From NCBI GenBank assembly GCA_964424345.1, contig CAYRIK010000005.1, positions 5,883-69,882 on the forward strand: DNA of 64,000 nucleotides. Direction: 5' to 3'. This DNA comes from an uncultured Lachnospiraceae bacterium. Its GTDB lineage: Bacteria > Bacillota > Clostridia > Lachnospirales > Lachnospiraceae. Numbering within the stretch: the first letter of the stretch is position 1; each line of letters opens with the position of its first letter. The position numbers and the translations under genes were made by a program. Positions 19,333 through 62,753 of this stretch are shown piece by piece. The notes beneath the pieces are model-generated. The model was given only the letters and a program-made list of their open reading frames with translations. It made no database searches and had not been told where the DNA came from.

Positions 19333-19345
19333 TCACAGCAAGTGA

Positions 19346-19535
19346 ATAGAACATTTCTGGTGTCAGAGGTAATGCTTTGGTGAAAAGGGAAGCATGTGAG
19401 ATTCATGCACGAACTCGTCGCTGTAATACAGGAGCTTTTTTTCTGCGAGCAATCGTAAAAAGTCACTGGTTTTATAAAAACTGGGAAGATGAAAAAAAGT
19501 GATGATCGTTAAGTCAGAAGACCTGCCAGAAGTGA
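19346..19535 (+). promoter_or_regulatory. cobalamin (B12) riboswitch
   Basis: P1 arms ttctgg (19355-19360) and ccagaa (19525-19530). Conserved core GGTGAAAAGGGAA, GTGAGATTC, CGCTGTAA, AGTCACTGG, CTGGGAAG. B12 box AGTCAGAAGACCTGCC at 19512-19527. Confidence 0.88.
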
Positions 19536-19689
19536 TATTGTGGAACTACGAGTAATTAGTTAAAGCAAGAGGCAGTATACACTTTTCTATATTGCATGCC
19601 ACAATCTTCTACACTTATACAACCAAGGCATATAAATATATGCTTTAGGATGGGGTTGTGCATTTTCAATATAGAAAGGAGTTTTTTAC

Positions 19690-20096: not shown

Positions 20097-20630
20097 ATGA
20101 AAAATCATGTTAAACTTTCAATCAAAGATATTGCCTTAATTGGTCTTATGGTCGCAGTAATTGAAGTATGTAAAGCTGCTCTCTCTCACATTCCAAACGT
20201 AGAATTAACTACTTTTTGGATTATGATGTTTGCACTTTATCTTGGAAAACGTGTTTATTATGCAATTCCTGTATTCATTTTGATAGAAGGTGCTATTTAT
20301 GGAGTTGGATTGTGGTGGATCATGTATCTTTATTTATGGCCTTTGTTAGCATTTGTAACAAGCCTTTTTAAAAAATCTGATTCCACAATTACATTCAGTC
20401 TTATATCCGGCACATTTGGTCTGTTATTCGGCCTTTTAGCTGCGATTCCTTATTTATTTATCGGCTATTTTGAAGGCGGTATTTTAAACGCATTCAGCGT
20501 CGCCTGTGCGTGGTGGGTTGCTGGCATTCCATGGGATTTATTGCATGGAATCAGTAATTTTATTCTTATGTTTATTTTATACCATCCTATTTCAAGCGTA
20601 ATGAAACGTACACGCATTTATACACAGTAA
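20097..20630 (+). CDS. ECF-transporter S-component-like membrane protein (candidate cobalamin-specific, CbrT-like)
   Basis: 177 aa, about 6 TM. Starts 2 nt after the DUF4430 gene and is under the same riboswitch. No EcfA/EcfT genes nearby. Confidence 0.6.
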   Translation: MKNHVKLSIKDIALIGLMVAVIEVCKAALSHIPNVELTTFWIMMFALYLGKRVYYAIPVFILIEGAIYGVGLWWIMYLYLWPLLAFVTSLFKKSDSTITFSLISGTFGLLFGLLAAIPYLFIGYFEGGILNAFSVACAWWVAGIPWDLLHGISNFILMFILYHPISSVMKRTRIYTQ

Positions 20631-56455: not shown

Positions 56456-57682
56456 TTATTTCTGCTTGTATCCGTCTAAGAATTCACCCATACGCTTCAT
56501 AGCATCTGCTAATACTTCTGCTTCTGGAAGCATTACGATACGGAAGTGATCTGGCTGAGCCCAGTCAAAACCACTGCCTGGTACTAATAAGATATTTGTA
56601 GCATGTAATAAATCTCTTGCAAATACCTTGTCGTTTGTGATGTTGAACTTCTTTACATCTAACTTAGGGAATAAGTAGAATGCTGCATCGTTCTTTACAA
56701 AGCTAAGACCATCAATCTTTGCAAGTTCTCTTGTACAAGCTTCTCTCTGTTCAAAAATACGTCCGCCTGGTGCTACCATAGATGCTGGAGTTGCCATATC
56801 ATCTAATGCTGCTGGGATAACAAGCTGTGCTAATGTATTTGCACATAATCTCATAGATGTAAGCTGAATGATACCCTGACGATAACCTTCTGTTAATTCA
56901 CGAGGACCGCTGATAACCATCCATCCGCAACGGTAACCGCACAGACAATGAGACTTAGAAAGACCATTCATTGTTACAACTGGGATATCTGGAGCTAATG
57001 CTGCTGTAGAAGTATGCTTTAAACCATCCATTACTAAACGGTCATAAATTTCATCAGAGAAAATGATAAGACCATGTTCTCTTGCTAAATCTATAATCTG
57101 TGTTAATACTTCTTCTGGATACAAAACACCTGTAGGGTTGTTTGGGTTGATGATAACGATTGCTTTTGTCTTAGAAGTAATCTTAGAACGCATATCGTTT
57201 ACATCTGGATACCAGTGTGCTTTTTCATCACAAACATAGAATACTGGCTTACCACCTGCTAACAATACAGAGTTGCCCCATAAAGAATAACTTGGAGATG
57301 GAACTAATACTTCATCACCGTCATCTAATAATGGCATTAATGCAAAGTTTACTACTTCACTTACACCATTTCCGATGAATACATCATCTGCTGTGATTCC
57401 CTGAATACCTTTTGTTTTTTCGTATTCACAGATAGCTTCACGTGCATTTGGCATACCCTTAAAGTCACAGTAGCCAAGACCTTTTGCTTCCTGACCTGCT
57501 AATGCATCTTCAATACTCTTTGGAAGCTTGAAACCAAATGTTGCAGGGTTACCTGTATTTAATTTTAATACATCGATACCATTTGCCTGCATCTGCATTG
57601 CTTCTACAAATAATGGTCCACGGATATCGGAATGTACATCTTTCATTCTGTCCGCTACTTTAATTCCATTCATCATGTTCAC
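56456..57682 (-). CDS. PLP-dependent aminotransferase, AlaA-like (class I/II)
   Basis: 408 aa. DIRGPLFVEA..VLKLNTGNPATFGF N-terminus as in the AlaA family, and PLP-lysine context NGLSKSH. Confidence 0.86.
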   Translation of the reverse strand: MNMMNGIKVADRMKDVHSDIRGPLFVEAMQMQANGIDVLKLNTGNPATFGFKLPKSIEDALAGQEAKGLGYCDFKGMPNAREAICEYEKTKGIQGITADDVFIGNGVSEVVNFALMPLLDDGDEVLVPSPSYSLWGNSVLLAGGKPVFYVCDEKAHWYPDVNDMRSKITSKTKAIVIINPNNPTGVLYPEEVLTQIIDLAREHGLIIFSDEIYDRLVMDGLKHTSTAALAPDIPVVTMNGLSKSHCLCGYRCGWMVISGPRELTEGYRQGIIQLTSMRLCANTLAQLVIPAALDDMATPASMVAPGGRIFEQREACTRELAKIDGLSFVKNDAAFYLFPKLDVKKFNITNDKVFARDLLHATNILLVPGSGFDWAQPDHFRIVMLPEAEVLADAMKRMGEFLDGYKQK

Positions 57683-57789
57683 ATTCTCCTTTTTCTTTCA
57701 TAAGAAAATTCTATTTTTAATTTATATTGTTCAAGCGATAACCACACTTGACAGTATCATACCTAAAATATACAATATAATCAAATACC

Positions 57790-57810
57790 TATAATTGTAT
57801 ATGAGTTATA
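57790..57810. promoter_or_regulatory. candidate LysR-type T-N11-A box
   Basis: TATAA-N11-TTATA in the 159-nt divergent region between the aminotransferase and LysR genes. AT-rich background makes chance occurrence plausible. Confidence 0.25.
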
Positions 57811-58139
57811 GTTTTTTTAATATAACCTTGCGAGGTCCATTATGTTTACTTGGAAAAAATATGTGTATGAAATCTACAAAGAAAAAAGTTTCTCAAAAGC
57901 TGCTCAAAATCTATATATCAGCCAGCCTTCTTTAAGTGCCCGCATCAAAAAAGTAGAACAACTTCTTGGTGCCCCTATCTTTGACCGAAGTACCTCTCCG
58001 CTTCGCCTTACGGAAATCGGAGAAGAATATATAAAATCCTGTGAAGAAATCTTTCAGATTGAGCAAAATATGGAAAACTGCATCAATAATCTCAATACAC
58101 TGAAATCAGGTCATCTATCCATGGGTGGAAGCAACCTTT

Positions 58140-58654
58140 TGGCAGCCTATGTTATTACACCTATGATCACTCGTTTCAAACAAACATATCCAGACGTTAC
58201 AATTCAGCTCACAGAAGGAAATACAGCTCAACTAGAAGCCCTGCTTGCAAACAATACACTGGATTTTGTAATTGACAACCATCGATATGACGCTGCCTTA
58301 TACAGCAAAGAATTTTATTGTAATGAAGATATTTTGCTCACTGTCCCAAAATCTTTTGAGATCAACCAGTCTCTTACAAAATATCAGCTTTCTTATGAGG
58401 ATATCCGCGAAAAAAACTATCGCAATCCTTCTCATCCAGCTGTTCCTTTACATACCTTTGCAGATACGCCTTTTATTATGCTTACGCCTGGAAATGACAC
58501 ACGCCTTCGTGGAGAAAAACTATGTAAATATGCTGGATTTCATCCAAATATCGTTTTGGAATTAAACCAGCAGGCCACCGCTTATATGGCTGCTTCTACA
58601 CAGCTTGGTGCAACCTTTATCAGTGACCTTTTAGTTTCCAGACTTCCTTCCTTT
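58140..58654 (+). repeat. tandem duplication, copy 1 (515 bp)
   Basis: Base-by-base comparison shows identity with 58655-59169. CCTTT microhomology at 58135-58139, 58650-58654 and 59165-59169. Confidence 0.9.
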
Positions 58655-59169
58655 TGGCAGCCTATGTTATTACACCTATGATCACTCGTTTCAAACAAAC
58701 ATATCCAGACGTTACAATTCAGCTCACAGAAGGAAATACAGCTCAACTAGAAGCCCTGCTTGCAAACAATACACTGGATTTTGTAATTGACAACCATCGA
58801 TATGACGCTGCCTTATACAGCAAAGAATTTTATTGTAATGAAGATATTTTGCTCACTGTCCCAAAATCTTTTGAGATCAACCAGTCTCTTACAAAATATC
58901 AGCTTTCTTATGAGGATATCCGCGAAAAAAACTATCGCAATCCTTCTCATCCAGCTGTTCCTTTACATACCTTTGCAGATACGCCTTTTATTATGCTTAC
59001 GCCTGGAAATGACACACGCCTTCGTGGAGAAAAACTATGTAAATATGCTGGATTTCATCCAAATATCGTTTTGGAATTAAACCAGCAGGCCACCGCTTAT
59101 ATGGCTGCTTCTACACAGCTTGGTGCAACCTTTATCAGTGACCTTTTAGTTTCCAGACTTCCTTCCTTT
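58655..59169 (+). repeat. tandem duplication, copy 2 (515 bp)
   Basis: Identical to 58140-58654. The ORF track also shows identical 97-aa shadow ORFs at 58272 and 58787, offset by 515. Confidence 0.9.
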
Positions 59170-59292
59170 GAAAGCCTTGTTTACTATAAACTCAGTCATG
59201 AAGAAGCCAAACGAGAGCTATACTTTTATTACAAGAAACATAAATACATCACACGCGCAATGAAAGAATTTATTGCTATCATGCACGAATAA

Positions 59293-60390
59293 TTATTTCT
59301 TTTCAAACACTTCGTATCCTACCGTTATATGCAGATATTTCATATATTTTGCATAAGCGGTCGGAATCGGATATTTCTCTCTTGTTTCATCTGGTTCTAC
59401 AAACAACCATTCTTTTGGAACATTTCTGTGGTCCAATTCATCCACACGAATCATATACCCTTTCATATGCCATTCTTTGTGTGTAAAAATATGCTTTGCA
59501 TCTTCTAATGGCTTAATCCAGATTGTCTCTAATCCCTGTTGCTTCAGATATGCTATAATTTCTTGTTCTGTCACATATCCTTCCATGACCGGAAATTCAT
59601 ACATACCCGCAAGCAGACCTTTAGATGGTCTTTTCACAAGTATAGTCTTATTTTCATCTCGTAAAATTAAGACGGTTCGTTCTTCTGTAATACGAGCTTT
59701 TTTCGGTGCTTTATATGGATACGCAAGCTCTGTTCCATGTAAATGTGCTTTACAAAATGTCTGAAATGGACACTGTGCACACTTTGGTGCACCATTTGGC
59801 ACACAGACCATTGCTCCAATTTCCATAAGTGCTTGATTAAAATCTCCCGGTCTGTCTTTTGACATTGCTGCTAAAATCCTGTTTTCCCAGTCTTTTTTTA
59901 CAGTTGCCGACAAAACATCTCTTTCATCTTCAAATACACGTGACATTACACGAAGAACATTTCCATCTACTGCCGGAACTGCTTTACCATAAGCAATGGA
60001 AGCAACTGCACCTGCAGTGTAACTTCCGATTCCTGGAAGTTTTAACAATTCAGAAACCTCATCAGGCATTTTTCCATGATATTGTTCCATCACAATTTTG
60101 GCTGCTTTTCCAAGATTTCGTACACGACTGTAATATCCAAGCCCTTCCCAAAGCTTTAATAATTCCTCTTCCTCAGCCATAGCTAGACTTTCTATGTCCG
60201 GCAAAGCATCCATAAATCTCGCAAAATAAGGTTTTACTGCCTCTACCCTTGTCTGCTGAAGCATAATTTCCGATACCCAGACGCGATATGCCGTAGGCTC
60301 TTCACGCCATGGCAGTATACGTCTGTTTGCATCATAATATGCCAACAAGGGCTGTATCATGTCTGTTATCGTTATCTCAATCTGTTGCAT
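59293..60390 (-). CDS. mutY: A/G-specific adenine DNA glycosylase
   Basis: 365 aa. HhH-GPD (LPGIGSYTAGAV), 4Fe-4S cluster CVPNGAPKCAQCPFQTFC, C-terminal NUDIX-like domain. Confidence 0.92.
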   Translation of the reverse strand: MQQIEITITDMIQPLLAYYDANRRILPWREEPTAYRVWVSEIMLQQTRVEAVKPYFARFMDALPDIESLAMAEEEELLKLWEGLGYYSRVRNLGKAAKIVMEQYHGKMPDEVSELLKLPGIGSYTAGAVASIAYGKAVPAVDGNVLRVMSRVFEDERDVLSATVKKDWENRILAAMSKDRPGDFNQALMEIGAMVCVPNGAPKCAQCPFQTFCKAHLHGTELAYPYKAPKKARITEERTVLILRDENKTILVKRPSKGLLAGMYEFPVMEGYVTEQEIIAYLKQQGLETIWIKPLEDAKHIFTHKEWHMKGYMIRVDELDHRNVPKEWLFVEPDETREKYPIPTAYAKYMKYLHITVGYEVFEKK

Positions 60391-60944: not shown

Positions 60945-62753
60945 TTACTGCTCTGCAATCTTTTTTGCTAATTCTTCTAAATACATCCAACGCTCCATTT
61001 TTTCTTCTAATAACTGTTCTGCCTCCTCCTTTTGTTCTGTAAAGTCTTTTAATTTTACAAAATCAGTTGCAAAAGCGATCATATCTGCTTCCAGCTTTTC
61101 TAATTTTTCTTCTAAAGCTGCAATATCACTTTCTATTGTTTCATACTCTTTTGCTTCCTGATATGTGAATTTCAATTTTCTTGTGCGATCAGCATTCCAC
61201 TTTTTACCACTTTCTCCAGCAGTCTTTGTCTGCTGCATAACTGGCTGTTGTGCTTCTTCTTTTTGTGCTTTACGAAGTGCGTAATCAGTATATCCACCTT
61301 CATGCTGTTCTAACACACCATTTTCTTCAAAAGAAAAAATTCTTCTTACTACACGATCTAAGAAATATCGATCATGGCTTACTGTAATTACAATACCCTG
61401 AAAATGGTCCAAATAGTCTTCCAAAATCTGCAGCGTAGCAATATCTAAATCGTTTGTAGGCTCATCCAAAATCAAAACATTTGGTGCTGTCATAAGTACT
61501 TTACATAAATATAGTCTGCGTCTTTCGCCGCCTGAAAGTTTTTCTAACTTGCTATACTGCATTTCTCCGTTGAAGAGGAAATTTTCTAACATCTTTGCAG
61601 CTGTTACAACACCATCTTCTGTACGAACATATTCTGCAACCTCTTTGATATAATCTATTACACGCATATCCGGATGCATTTCTGTATCATCAATTTCCTG
61701 TGCATAATAGCCAATCTTTACTGTTGGTCCGATTTGTAATGTTCCGCTGTCTTGCTCAATCTGACCCATGATGATTTTTAGCAAGGTACTCTTTCCTGCT
61801 CCATTTGGTCCAAGAAAACCAATACGATCATTTTTCAAGAAAATATAAGAGAAGTCAGAAATAAGTACTTTATCATCATATGCCTTGCAAATATGCTCTA
61901 ATTCAATTGTGCTTCGTCCAATTCGACTGCTGACACTTCCAATTTCCACTTGGCCGTCTCTTGTTGGTGCTGCAGTATTTTTCAATTCCTCATAACGTTC
62001 CAAACGTGCTTTTTGCTTTGTACTTCTTGCTCTGGCACCTCGTTTTACCCATTCTAATTCTACACGCAGAATAGACTGTCTCTTACGTTCACTCGCAAGC
62101 TGCATATCTTCTCGCTCTGCTTTCAGCTGCAAAAATCCTGCATAGTTTGTCTCGTAAGAATAAATCTGTCCCTTATCTATTTCAATGATGCGATTTGCTA
62201 CACTGTCCAAGAAATATCGATCATGTGTTACCATAATGATACTTCCTTTGTATGCCTTTAACTGTTCTTCCAGCCAATCGCTCATTTGTGCATCTAAATG
62301 GTTTGTAGGCTCGTCTAAGATCAAAATATCAGCTGGTGCAAGCAAAACACTTACAAGTGCCAAACGCTTTTTCTGACCTCCTGAAAGCTGTCCGCAAGGC
62401 TGTGAAAAATCTGCAACCCCAAGCTTTGTCAGCATAGATTTCGCATCTGTTTCTATACTCCATTCATTTTCTTTTGTGACATTTCCAGAAAGCACTGCCT
62501 CTAATACTGTCATATCATTTTGAAAAACCGGAGTCTGAGGCAAATATCGTATCACTACATGATTTGCCTTAATAATCGTACCATCGTCTGGTTCTTCTAA
62601 ACCTGCTATCAGCTTTAATAATGTAGACTTTCCTGTTCCATTTATGCCGATGACACCTACTTTTTCCTGCTCCTGCAAATAAAAGGAAGCATCTTCCAGC
62701 AATTTTCTATTTTGAAATGATTTTGTTATATGGTCTATGGTAAGTATGTTCAT
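60945..62753 (-). CDS. ABC-F family ATPase, Uup-like (C-terminal coiled coil)
   Basis: Two NBDs (GINGTGKST, LSGGQKKR; GPNGAGKST, LSGGERRR) and a C-terminal coiled coil. ATG at 62753 follows AAAGGA. Confidence 0.9.
   Translation of the reverse strand: MNILTIDHITKSFQNRKLLEDASFYLQEQEKVGVIGINGTGKSTLLKLIAGLEEPDDGTIIKANHVVIRYLPQTPVFQNDMTVLEAVLSGNVTKENEWSIETDAKSMLTKLGVADFSQPCGQLSGGQKKRLALVSVLLAPADILILDEPTNHLDAQMSDWLEEQLKAYKGSIIMVTHDRYFLDSVANRIIEIDKGQIYSYETNYAGFLQLKAEREDMQLASERKRQSILRVELEWVKRGARARSTKQKARLERYEELKNTAAPTRDGQVEIGSVSSRIGRSTIELEHICKAYDDKVLISDFSYIFLKNDRIGFLGPNGAGKSTLLKIIMGQIEQDSGTLQIGPTVKIGYYAQEIDDTEMHPDMRVIDYIKEVAEYVRTEDGVVTAAKMLENFLFNGEMQYSKLEKLSGGERRRLYLCKVLMTAPNVLILDEPTNDLDIATLQILEDYLDHFQGIVITVSHDRYFLDRVVRRIFSFEENGVLEQHEGGYTDYALRKAQKEEAQQPVMQQTKTAGESGKKWNADRTRKLKFTYQEAKEYETIESDIAALEEKLEKLEADMIAFATDFVKLKDFTEQKEEAEQLLEEKMERWMYLEELAKKIAEQ

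Follow-up and report, generated by a model that had tools for sequence, protein, structure and literature searches.

Background

What is already known about perfect duplications inside genes? In S. pombe, microhomology-mediated tandem duplications (MTDs) with 5-8 bp of microhomology produce frameshift nulls, which revert precisely in about 1 in 10,000 cells (Dan et al. 2021, PMC8639346). MTDs also arise de novo in bacteria. A survey of bacterial, archaeal and fungal sequences reports about 76,000 strain-variable tandem-duplication loci in public assemblies, and around half of the strain-variable tandem duplications carry more than 3 bp of microhomology versus 1.6% expected (bioRxiv 10.64898/2026.02.28.708716). 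The way back has been studied in E. coli, where tandem repeats are deleted at high frequency independently of RecA; in the tetA constructs of the Lovett laboratory, template switching or sister-strand exchange removes one of a pair of perfect direct repeats lying side by side within the gene, which is thereby restored (PMC8378479). Duplications in the pneumococcal capsule genes cap3A and wchA/cps8E (Waite et al., refs 28 and 33 in PMC4022640) are, as cited there, spontaneous and intragenic, abolish the product and can be lost precisely, with a reversion frequency said to depend on the length of the duplication.

The locus described here lies in a stretch of 64,000 nucleotides from an uncultured Lachnospiraceae bacterium, called the window below. 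It carries a 515-bp tandem duplication inside a gene for a LysR-type regulator (LTTR). Like the MTDs of S. pombe and of the bacterial, archaeal and fungal survey, it consists of head-to-tail perfect copies with a short flanking pair (5 bp here, 5-8 bp in the ssp1 alleles), it frameshifts the gene in a strain-private allele, and precise reversion is expected (PMC8639346, 10.64898/2026.02.28.708716). It differs in that the unit is 515 bp long, compared with 55-92 bp in the ssp1 alleles of S. pombe, and in that it is known from sequence alone, in an uncultured member of the Lachnospiraceae. The pneumococcal duplications, as they are presented in PMC4022640, recur in many isolates under defined selection (biofilm/sorbarod) and were shown to revert, while here there is one instance. 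The E. coli tetA repeats are engineered plasmid constructs of 101 bp (PMC8378479), while the present repeat measures 515 bp and lies on the chromosome of a member of the Clostridia. The gene itself resembles the classical divergent LTTRs, with HTH_1 at the N-terminus and LysR_substrate at the C-terminus of about 311 aa, a divergent gene as presumed target, and, shared by the two genes, about 110-230 bp of intergenic DNA with a dyad; the dyad here is, however, TATAA-N11-TTATA and not the textbook T-N11-A box.

We consider it quite probable that the window holds a very recent MTD, private to this strain, inside a conserved and otherwise single-copy LysR-type gene of a Lachnospiraceae chromosome. 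This is an ordinary and well-known kind of mutation, already documented across bacteria, and no new mechanism or system is involved.

Results and discussion

Two identical copies joined at CCTTT

The duplication and its boundaries comprise the following features.

58140-58654, + strand: first copy of the 515-bp unit, encoding LysR residues 100-271; the register is arbitrary within 58135-59169
58655-59169, + strand: second copy of the 515-bp unit, missing from ten conspecific contigs
58135-58139, + strand: left CCTTT microhomology (ancestral left breakpoint), where the period-515 match starts
58650-58654, + strand: CCTTT at the novel junction ...CTTCCTTCCTTT/TGGCAGCC..., read directly from the sequence
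59165-59169, + strand: right CCTTT microhomology (ancestral right breakpoint), where the period-515 match ends

In a base-by-base comparison the two copies were identical at 515/515 bp with 0 mismatches, and a perfect repeat of this length cannot arise by chance. There are exactly two copies, and they abut directly, without spacer or filler. The period-515 identity spans 58135 to 59169 and ends on both sides, thus the junction microhomology is exactly 5 bp (CCTTT). The original prediction had claimed that the copies agree base for base and that CCTTT bounds the unit three times, and both readings proved correct. A repeat search returned the pair as repeat family D1, with a spacing of 515, and as the sole long repeat in 64 kb; its period limit of 500 is the sole reason why TRF was silent on it.

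Is a junction of this kind expected from random breakage? The computed probability of a junction microhomology of at least 5 bp at random breakpoints in this sequence is P = 0.008. When the window sequence was restored to one copy, the CCTTT pair could be read in it, and the ancestral gene contained no repeat tract beyond this 5-mer pair. Three features expected of an MTD, namely two abutting copies, a single-copy ancestral allele with the flanking pair, and junction microhomology above chance, were found at this locus.

Effect on the reading frame and the protein

Since 515 leaves a remainder of 2 on division by 3, the native frame of the regulator is lost after residue 271 and a stop follows 8 codons on. 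The resulting reading frames are as follows.

57842-58681, + strand: ORF1, a 279-aa frameshifted LysR in which 271 native residues are followed by WQPMLLHL and the stop; it keeps the HTH, the linker helix and most of the effector domain
58654-59292, + strand: ORF2, residues 100-311, that is the second copy of 100-271 followed by the true C-terminus 272-311, without the native start
58678-58681, + strand: ATGA overlap between the ORF1 stop TGA and an ATG that encodes Met108 in copy 2 and lies in frame with ORF2 (58678-58654 = 24)

A frameshift at the junction, with ORF1 ending 8 codons later and the last 40 residues lost, had been proposed before, and it is borne out by the terminal WQPMLLHL and the absence of residues 272-311. 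ORF2 had been described as a start-less repeat of the effector domain plus the true C-terminus. Its extent, residues 100-311, holds, but it is not strictly start-less, since two in-frame start codons are available to it, a TTG at 58654 and, at 58678, the ATG of native Met108. In our reading of the sequence, neither the TTG at 58654 nor the ATG at 58678 is preceded by a Shine-Dalgarno-like sequence. Reinitiation at the ATGA overlap is a conjecture. A promoter-like site at the start of the unit (TTGGCA, 17 nt, TATGAT) was considered as an internal source of ORF2 expression and rejected, for its -10 hexamer ends past the ATG at 58678. With one copy removed, a single 311-aa ORF is regained with both LysR Pfam domains above cut-off, in agreement with what had been foreseen, and the two ORFs are best flagged in annotation as one disrupted gene.

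The restored 311-aa protein matches HTH_1 (PF00126) with 63.8 bits at residues 6-61 (cut-off 26.6) and LysR_substrate (PF03466) with 117.6 bits at residues 88-310 (cut-off 28); ORF1 as it stands in the window is without the last 40 residues of the PF03466 region. PDB matches of the restored protein are LTTRs including CbbR, OxyR, BenM and CysB, and its predicted structure (mean pLDDT 80.6) shows an HTH, a long linker helix and two α/β subdomains, as expected of an LTTR. No NCBIfam equivalog model reached its cut-off for this regulator, the best being CidR with 155 of 415 bits and GltC with 90 of 350 bits, and a literature search brought up no relevant account of a characterised LysR protein that regulates alanine aminotransferase in Clostridia.

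What would remain of the regulator after the frameshift? In the structure model, the lost residues 272-311 hold strands 274-279 and 285-293 and helix 300-310. The truncated product would keep the winged-helix DNA-binding domain and the linker helix, while the effector-binding domain would be left incomplete for want of these strands and the terminal helix. Since the 40 missing residues amount to two β-strands and the last helix of that domain, the allele is probably null; judged from the model, the truncated LysR is most likely misfolded or inactive, giving a null or strongly hypomorphic allele. With the HTH and linker still present, the ORF1 product could retain DNA binding.

The duplication is derived and young

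If the duplication is recent, relatives should carry the gene in one copy. This is what was found in ten single-copy conspecific contigs, which come from ten metagenome samples and are 97.5-99.99% identical to the window at the nucleotide level. The window minus one copy is collinear and gap-free with all ten. The restored 311-aa protein is 100% identical to P0001, a protein on single-copy contigs, and six of the contigs (L001-L006) show no difference in lysR. The closest one, L003, differs from the window by 1 SNP in 6,967 bp and is single-copy. Outside the species, each of 31 related species has one lysR copy of about 310 aa; orthologues at 77% identity place the organism as Lachnospiraceae-like. 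Because the conspecific contigs and the 31 related species are all single-copy, the two-copy state is a derived one, confined to this sequence and of very recent origin. The original prediction of a very recent event is strengthened by the single-copy state of the near-identical L003, and its suggested comparison with orthologues brought up no relative with a diverged, in-frame two-copy form.

Exact-word searches describe the same boundaries. The 31-mer at the left boundary was found in 8/12 conspecific Logan loci and is present in the 99.6-99.99% relatives that cover the site; three contigs at about 97.5% lack the exact 31-mer. The 31-mer at the right boundary was found in 11/12 loci, the exception being L042, whose contig ends before the site. 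The junction 31-mer AGACTTCCTTCCTTTTGGCAGCCTATGTTAT was absent from all 12 loci. A longer junction pattern had 0 matches in JGI metagenome contigs. A 32-mer from the unit end, which does not span the junction, had 0 matches in GTDB representative genomes and JGI contigs, therefore the source species is not in those two collections. Exact-protein look-up found neither the 279-aa ORF1 product nor the 204-aa ORF2 product from the ATG at 58678 on record. As the allele and both products are absent from every collection searched, the two-copy allele rests on one assembly.

Two other origins were considered and rejected. An ancient or functional internal domain duplication does not fit, since all relatives have the gene in one copy and the two copies here do not share a frame. 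Involvement of a mobile element or phage does not fit either; there are no inverted or other repeats, and the neighbouring genes (PolC, Dxr, Frr, PyrH and folate genes) belong to the core chromosome.

Origin of the duplication and alternative explanations

How could the two-copy state have arisen? During replication, a nascent 3' end that had copied the downstream CCTTT (the ancestral equivalent of 58650-58654) may have re-paired with the CCTTT lying 515 bp behind it (58135-58139). The re-paired end would then copy the interval a second time and leave a tandem duplication. From the literature, adjacent perfect 515-bp repeats would be genetically unstable, and a deletion that precisely removed one copy, whether RecA-dependent or by template switch, would give back the exact wild-type gene. 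The duplication is thus probably reversible, by analogy with the published cases (PMC8639346, PMC8378479, PMC4022640), and the on/off behaviour proposed for it is a reasonable inference from that literature.

An error of assembly or finishing could imitate such a structure, for instance if two contigs or reads with a 515-bp overlap were placed end to end and not merged, or if gap-filling, polishing or long-read consensus went wrong, the true genome having one intact lysR. An artefact would likewise yield copies without any divergence, the two-copy allele was met in no other sequence, and the closest relative, 1 SNP away in about 7 kb, has one copy. A De Bruijn assembler, however, can build such a junction only from k-mers that occur in the reads, and the contigs it leaves overlap by k-1 (no more than about 127 bp) and not by 515 bp. 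Moreover, concatenation has no reason to land on microhomology, which at 5 bp or more would be met at only 0.8% of random breakpoints; this speaks for a genuine template switch rather than joined contigs. Comparison with independent contigs brought up no indel in the 10.6 kb around the site, which shows an assembly that is otherwise clean in this region. Given the junction microhomology and an alignment to ten contigs that is otherwise collinear and free of gaps, an artefact of simple concatenation is unlikely. Real strain-private microhomology tandem duplications are in addition common in public assemblies (10.64898/2026.02.28.708716). Taken as a whole, an assembly error is improbable, and less likely than a genuine mutation. 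A doubtful but somewhat stronger candidate is a real duplication present as a minority or co-existing variant, of which the assembler took the two-copy path while most cells kept the intact gene. Unstable duplications do tend to stay subclonal by reverting quickly (PMC8639346), and ten other samples of the species show the single-copy form only. Against this, assemblers normally report the majority path, and the survey of variable tandem duplications treats assembly-specific ones as fixed in the sequenced population (10.64898/2026.02.28.708716).

Might the duplication instead be a selected reversible switch, that is, an adaptive on/off allele of the regulator that relieves repression or activates alanine metabolism, for example, with the two-ORF state perhaps yielding a split regulator? 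Mechanistically, little stands in the way of a precise reversion, an in-frame ATG of ORF2 overlaps the stop of ORF1 (ATGA, 58678-58681), and the pneumococcal intragenic tandem duplications act, as cited in PMC4022640, as reversible capsule switches. We nevertheless regard this as very improbable. The two-copy state does not recur, with 0 matches of the junction pattern in JGI contigs and the junction 31-mer in 0/12 conspecific loci, and a single instance is no evidence of selection. Before the event the gene offered nothing repetitive beyond the 5-mer, neither ORF2 start has a Shine-Dalgarno sequence before it, and in the structure model an ORF2 product from Met108 would miss strand 91-96 and half of helix 98-115. 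A phase-variable (contingency) locus is recognised by recurrent on/off switching at a dedicated hypermutable sequence and by populations in which each state turns up repeatedly; here the two-copy state was seen only in the window. A more elaborate form, in which a selected, rapidly reversible switch turns off or rewires a LysR regulator of alanine and nitrogen metabolism and the ATGA overlap allows a split regulator of altered activity, with one fragment that binds DNA and another that is a free effector domain, is extremely improbable.

A recent MTD therefore remains the preferred explanation. If real, it is a clean natural MTD knockout of a transcription factor in a commensal Firmicute. As a near-isogenic wild-type sequence exists (1 SNP in about 7 kb), it would be a convenient natural mutant in which to study the function of the conserved LysR/AlaA-like pair in Lachnospiraceae, and one further example from gut bacteria of a null allele that is unstable and can revert.

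The divergent aminotransferase and the shared intergenic region

The regulator gene is preceded by the following features.

56456-57676, - strand: AlaA-like class I/II aminotransferase (PF00155), the presumed target
57748-57776, + strand: lysR promoter-like site, TTGACA, 17 nt, TACAAT, with 11/12 matches
57777-57830, strand not assigned: AT-rich conserved block and candidate operator, between the -10 hexamer and the lysR start, including the dyad TATAA-N11-TTATA

The best PDB match of the aminotransferase is E. coli AlaA (4cvq, E = 2.9e-125, full length), and its best NCBIfam model is alanine aminotransferase with 338 bits, below the 534-bit cut-off. The divergent pairing of regulator and aminotransferase is kept in 28/31 related genomes. 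The match to 4cvq and this pairing support the earlier naming of the neighbour as a divergent AlaA-like aminotransferase, and the conserved divergent gene order makes it the likely target of the regulator. Judged from that order, the duplication would cause loss of effector-responsive control of the AlaA-like aminotransferase and of lysR autoregulation.

Both hexamers of the lysR promoter are conserved in position across related loci. The AT-rich block has the consensus ATA.TCAAATAccTATAaT.aTATA..t.TTATATcatTTTaacTATaA over 22 related loci plus the window, 4 further loci being without the anchor, and the regulator may bind there.

Anatomy of the duplication

The segments 58140-58654 and 58655-59169 abut within lysR, and direct reading of the window gives 515/515 equal positions between them. 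An independent run of a repeat finder over the 64 kb returned the same pair with a spacing of 515, in agreement with the perfect tandem copies proposed in the original prediction; the second family it reported is a 52-nt pair of 77% identity (61346/62195), with no further family and no inverted repeats in the 64 kb. Tandem Repeats Finder misses the 515-bp repeat solely through its maximum period of 500. When the window is compared with itself at period 515, identity spans 58135-59169, and the first mismatches outside this stretch are A vs T on the left and T vs G on the right. It follows from these limits that the junction shares exactly five bases, the predicted CCTTT, which occurs at 58135-58139, 58650-58654 and 59165-59169. 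The downstream CCTTT site lies within a short pyrimidine run, CTTCCTTCCTTT, which we suspect of favouring misalignment. A promoter-like pair, TTGGCA and TATGAT separated by 17 nt (10/12 matches), lies right at the unit start and was thus duplicated along with it (58139-58167 and 58654-58682); lying in coding sequence, it is probably a chance match.

What does the duplication do to the gene? Since 515 mod 3 = 2, the frame shifts at the junction, and lysR is read as two open reading frames on the + strand:

57842-58681, +, ORF1: 271 native residues, then WQPMLLHL and a stop
58654-59292, +, ORF2: residues 100-271 repeated, then the true C-terminus

With one copy deleted, a single ORF of 311 aa is obtained, with HTH_1 at residues 6-61 and LysR_substrate at 88-310, both far above the Pfam cut-offs. 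The frameshift, the truncated ORF1 and the intact LysR protein restored by removing one copy had all been predicted and are borne out. For ORF2, the repeat of the effector domain with the true C-terminus stands; its description as start-less is not strictly exact, for there are an in-frame TTG (58654) and an in-frame ATG (58678).

Consequences for the protein

The restored protein was modelled with AlphaFold2 using 40 homologues (mean pLDDT 80.6, pTM 0.65). The model has the standard layout of a LysR-type transcriptional regulator (LTTR): three short winged-HTH helices, a long linker helix (58-89) and an α/β effector-binding domain. Residues 272-311, the 40 missing in ORF1, hold two strands (274-279, 285-293) and the terminal helix (300-310); across the 40 homologues, 9 of their columns are invariant and another 10 nearly so. 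In LTTRs the elements matching these two strands and the terminal helix return from subdomain II and complete subdomain I. The model thus suggests that the ORF1 protein is most likely misfolded or inactive. A product of ORF2 would have to start at the TTG (residue 100) or at Met108, and from Met108 it would be without strand 91-96 and half of helix 98-115 of the model. The Met108 codon of copy 2 overlaps the ORF1 stop TGA as ATGA (58678-58681), the geometry of a termination-reinitiation site. No purine-rich ribosome-binding (Shine-Dalgarno) sequence was seen in the window upstream of either the TTG or the ATG. This leaves termination-reinitiation at the ATGA overlap, a conjecture, as the sole route to an ORF2 product. 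In practice, ORF1 and ORF2 should be annotated as one disrupted gene.

A derived and private allele

To place the two-copy state as ancestral, shared or private, we searched 5.8 billion proteins with the restored protein; the best match, a database protein of 311 aa, is 100% identical to it. Both this protein and the neighbouring aminotransferase lead back to contigs in the Logan assemblies of public runs. The window minus one copy aligns with them end to end with zero gaps: two contigs of 10.6 kb each are 99.86-99.92% identical to it, and a third (L003) differs by 1 SNP in 6,967 bp. Four more (L004-L006, L039) are 99.6-99.9% identical to the window, and lysR itself has zero nucleotide differences between the window and L001-L006. 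Two lineages of the species are represented among the metagenome contigs: one has 99.6-99.99% nucleotide identity to the window, and the other, at about 97.5%, consists of L040, L041 and L043 from a separate run series (SRR356417xx). lysR is covered in full by ten contigs, each from its own sample, and 10/10 carry one copy. Exact 31-mers across the unit boundaries were found in 8/12 (left) and 11/12 (right) conspecific loci, and the junction 31-mer in 0/12. Logan contigs come from k-mer graphs, where a well-covered junction k-mer should open a branch at the unit boundaries. The contigs continue across these boundaries, and from the way such assemblers work this would argue against a junction k-mer at such depth.

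Exact-protein look-up has neither the ORF1 nor the ORF2 product on record; the junction pattern gave 0 matches in JGI metagenome contigs, and the unit-end 32-mer 0 matches in these contigs and the GTDB representative genomes. The comparison with relatives that the original prediction had called for gave the same picture: 31 related species have a single-ORF orthologue (about 306-311 codons, 55-77% identity), among them Lachnotalea, Acetatifactor, Dorea, Faecalicatena, Merdimonas, Bariatricus and unnamed Lachnospiraceae/Eubacteriales MAGs. Together, the single-copy conspecific contigs and the single-ORF relatives indicate that the duplication is derived and private to the window sequence. It postdates the divergence from L003 (about 1.4e-4 substitutions per site), as expected of the very recent event predicted.

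Real event or artefact, and its mechanism

An assembly artefact could also yield a second copy, through an unmerged contig overlap or a gap-filling error. Such an error has no reason to fall on microhomology, while a template switch does. Three null sets of breakpoint pairs were used: all those with a spacing of 515 bp in the restored window, random ones spaced by 100-2000 bp, and all those within the gene; microhomology of 5 bp or more occurs at only 0.79%, 0.83% and 0.81% of them, respectively. Moreover, the surrounding 10.6 kb has zero indels against independent assemblies, so the stretch is not generally error-prone. The base rate points the same way: in 1.5 million public genomes, about 76,000 tandem-duplication loci that vary between strains have been catalogued, of which about half had >3 bp microhomology vs 1.6% expected (bioRxiv 10.64898/2026.02.28.708716). 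Strain-variable tandem-duplication alleles in assemblies are therefore common and mostly of the microhomology type. We regard the artefact as unlikely, and there is a high probability that the junction exists in real DNA, be it fixed or in a subpopulation.

Judged from sequence, the event has the features of a microhomology-mediated tandem duplication (MTD): the two perfect copies abut, the ancestral allele is single-copy and carries the microhomology pair, and the microhomology exceeds chance expectation. A nascent strand ending in CCTTT would re-pair with the identical pentamer 515 bp upstream and then copy the 515-bp interval again. A perfect repeat of this length is long enough for RecA-dependent recombination. 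Comparable MTD alleles are known in ssp1 of S. pombe, with units of 55-92 bp instead of 515 bp; they have microhomology of 5-8 bp, are frameshift nulls and revert precisely in about 1/10,000 cells, roughly 100x the forward rate (PMC8639346). Tandem repeats inside E. coli tetA are deleted at high frequency via RecA-independent template switching (PMC8378479), and intragenic tandem duplications are described as switching off pneumococcal capsule genes, with length-dependent reversion (Waite et al., as cited in PMC4022640). By analogy with these cases, and given its length, the two-copy lysR allele should be unstable, with exact reversion expected. With no recurrence and no dedicated repeat tract, the locus does not qualify as phase-variable. 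This kind of mutation is already well described, bacteria included, and the lysR allele just adds one more example, here in an uncharacterised regulator.

The aminotransferase and its presumed control

Upstream of the ORFs lie two further features:

56456-57676, -, class I/II aminotransferase gene, on the opposite strand to lysR
57748-57776, predicted near-consensus lysR promoter: TTGACA, 17 nt, TACAAT (11/12 matches)

The best NCBIfam model for the aminotransferase is alanine aminotransferase, at 338 bits vs a cut-off of 534 and thus not an equivalog call; among solved structures, E. coli AlaA matches best (4cvq; E = 2.9e-125, full length). The divergent pairing with lysR recurs in 28/31 related genomes at an intergenic distance of about 100-320 bp, which upholds the predicted AlaA-like divergent neighbour. 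In the other three (L008, L010, L012), the lysR orthologue has 71-74% identity and no AlaA-like aminotransferase was found in the flank retrieved; paralogy or rearrangement may account for them.

The layout resembles the classical LTTR arrangement, and gene order makes the aminotransferase gene and lysR itself likely targets of the regulator. Directly after the predicted promoter there is a conserved AT-rich block, ATA.TCAAATAccTATAaT.aTATA..t.TTATATcatTTTaacTATaA, including a TATAA-N11-TTATA dyad. It is conserved in the window and 22 related loci, which range from named Lachnospiraceae genera to MAGs labelled Oscillospiraceae/Eubacteriales; four other loci are without the anchor motif. Promoter and block together span 57748-57830, and the block (57777-57830) is a candidate operator of this uncharacterised LTTR family. 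No NCBIfam equivalog reaches its cut-off for the regulator (best CidR, 155 vs 415 bits), and the literature search found no characterised counterpart.

Surroundings in the window

The window belongs to the core chromosome of a Firmicute of low GC content (36.5%), with genes for PolC, IspG, RseP, Dxr, CdsA, UppS, Frr and PyrH and for FolK/FolB, FolP, FolE and FolC; the folate genes are followed by the aminotransferase gene, lysR, convergent mutY, a DUF1653 gene and an ABC-F ATPase gene. No mobile element, tRNA or inverted repeat was found near lysR. The stop codons of lysR (+) and mutY (-) abut with zero spacer (59292/59293; 59290-59295), and no terminator-like site was found beyond either stop; the three such sites reported are all inside the aminotransferase gene or the duplicated unit.

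Elsewhere, a cobalamin riboswitch aptamer (RF00174, 105.5 bits, full-length model match) lies at 19341-19544 (+), and a + strand ORF of at least 150 aa starts after it at 20097. An imperfect tandem repeat occupies 817-856 (period 21, 1.9 copies, 80% matches). The 52-nt direct repeat (61346-61397 and 62195-62246, 849 bp apart) is in the 607-aa ABC-F ATPase gene and reflects its two homologous ABC_tran domains, the ATPase halves, an old internal duplication.
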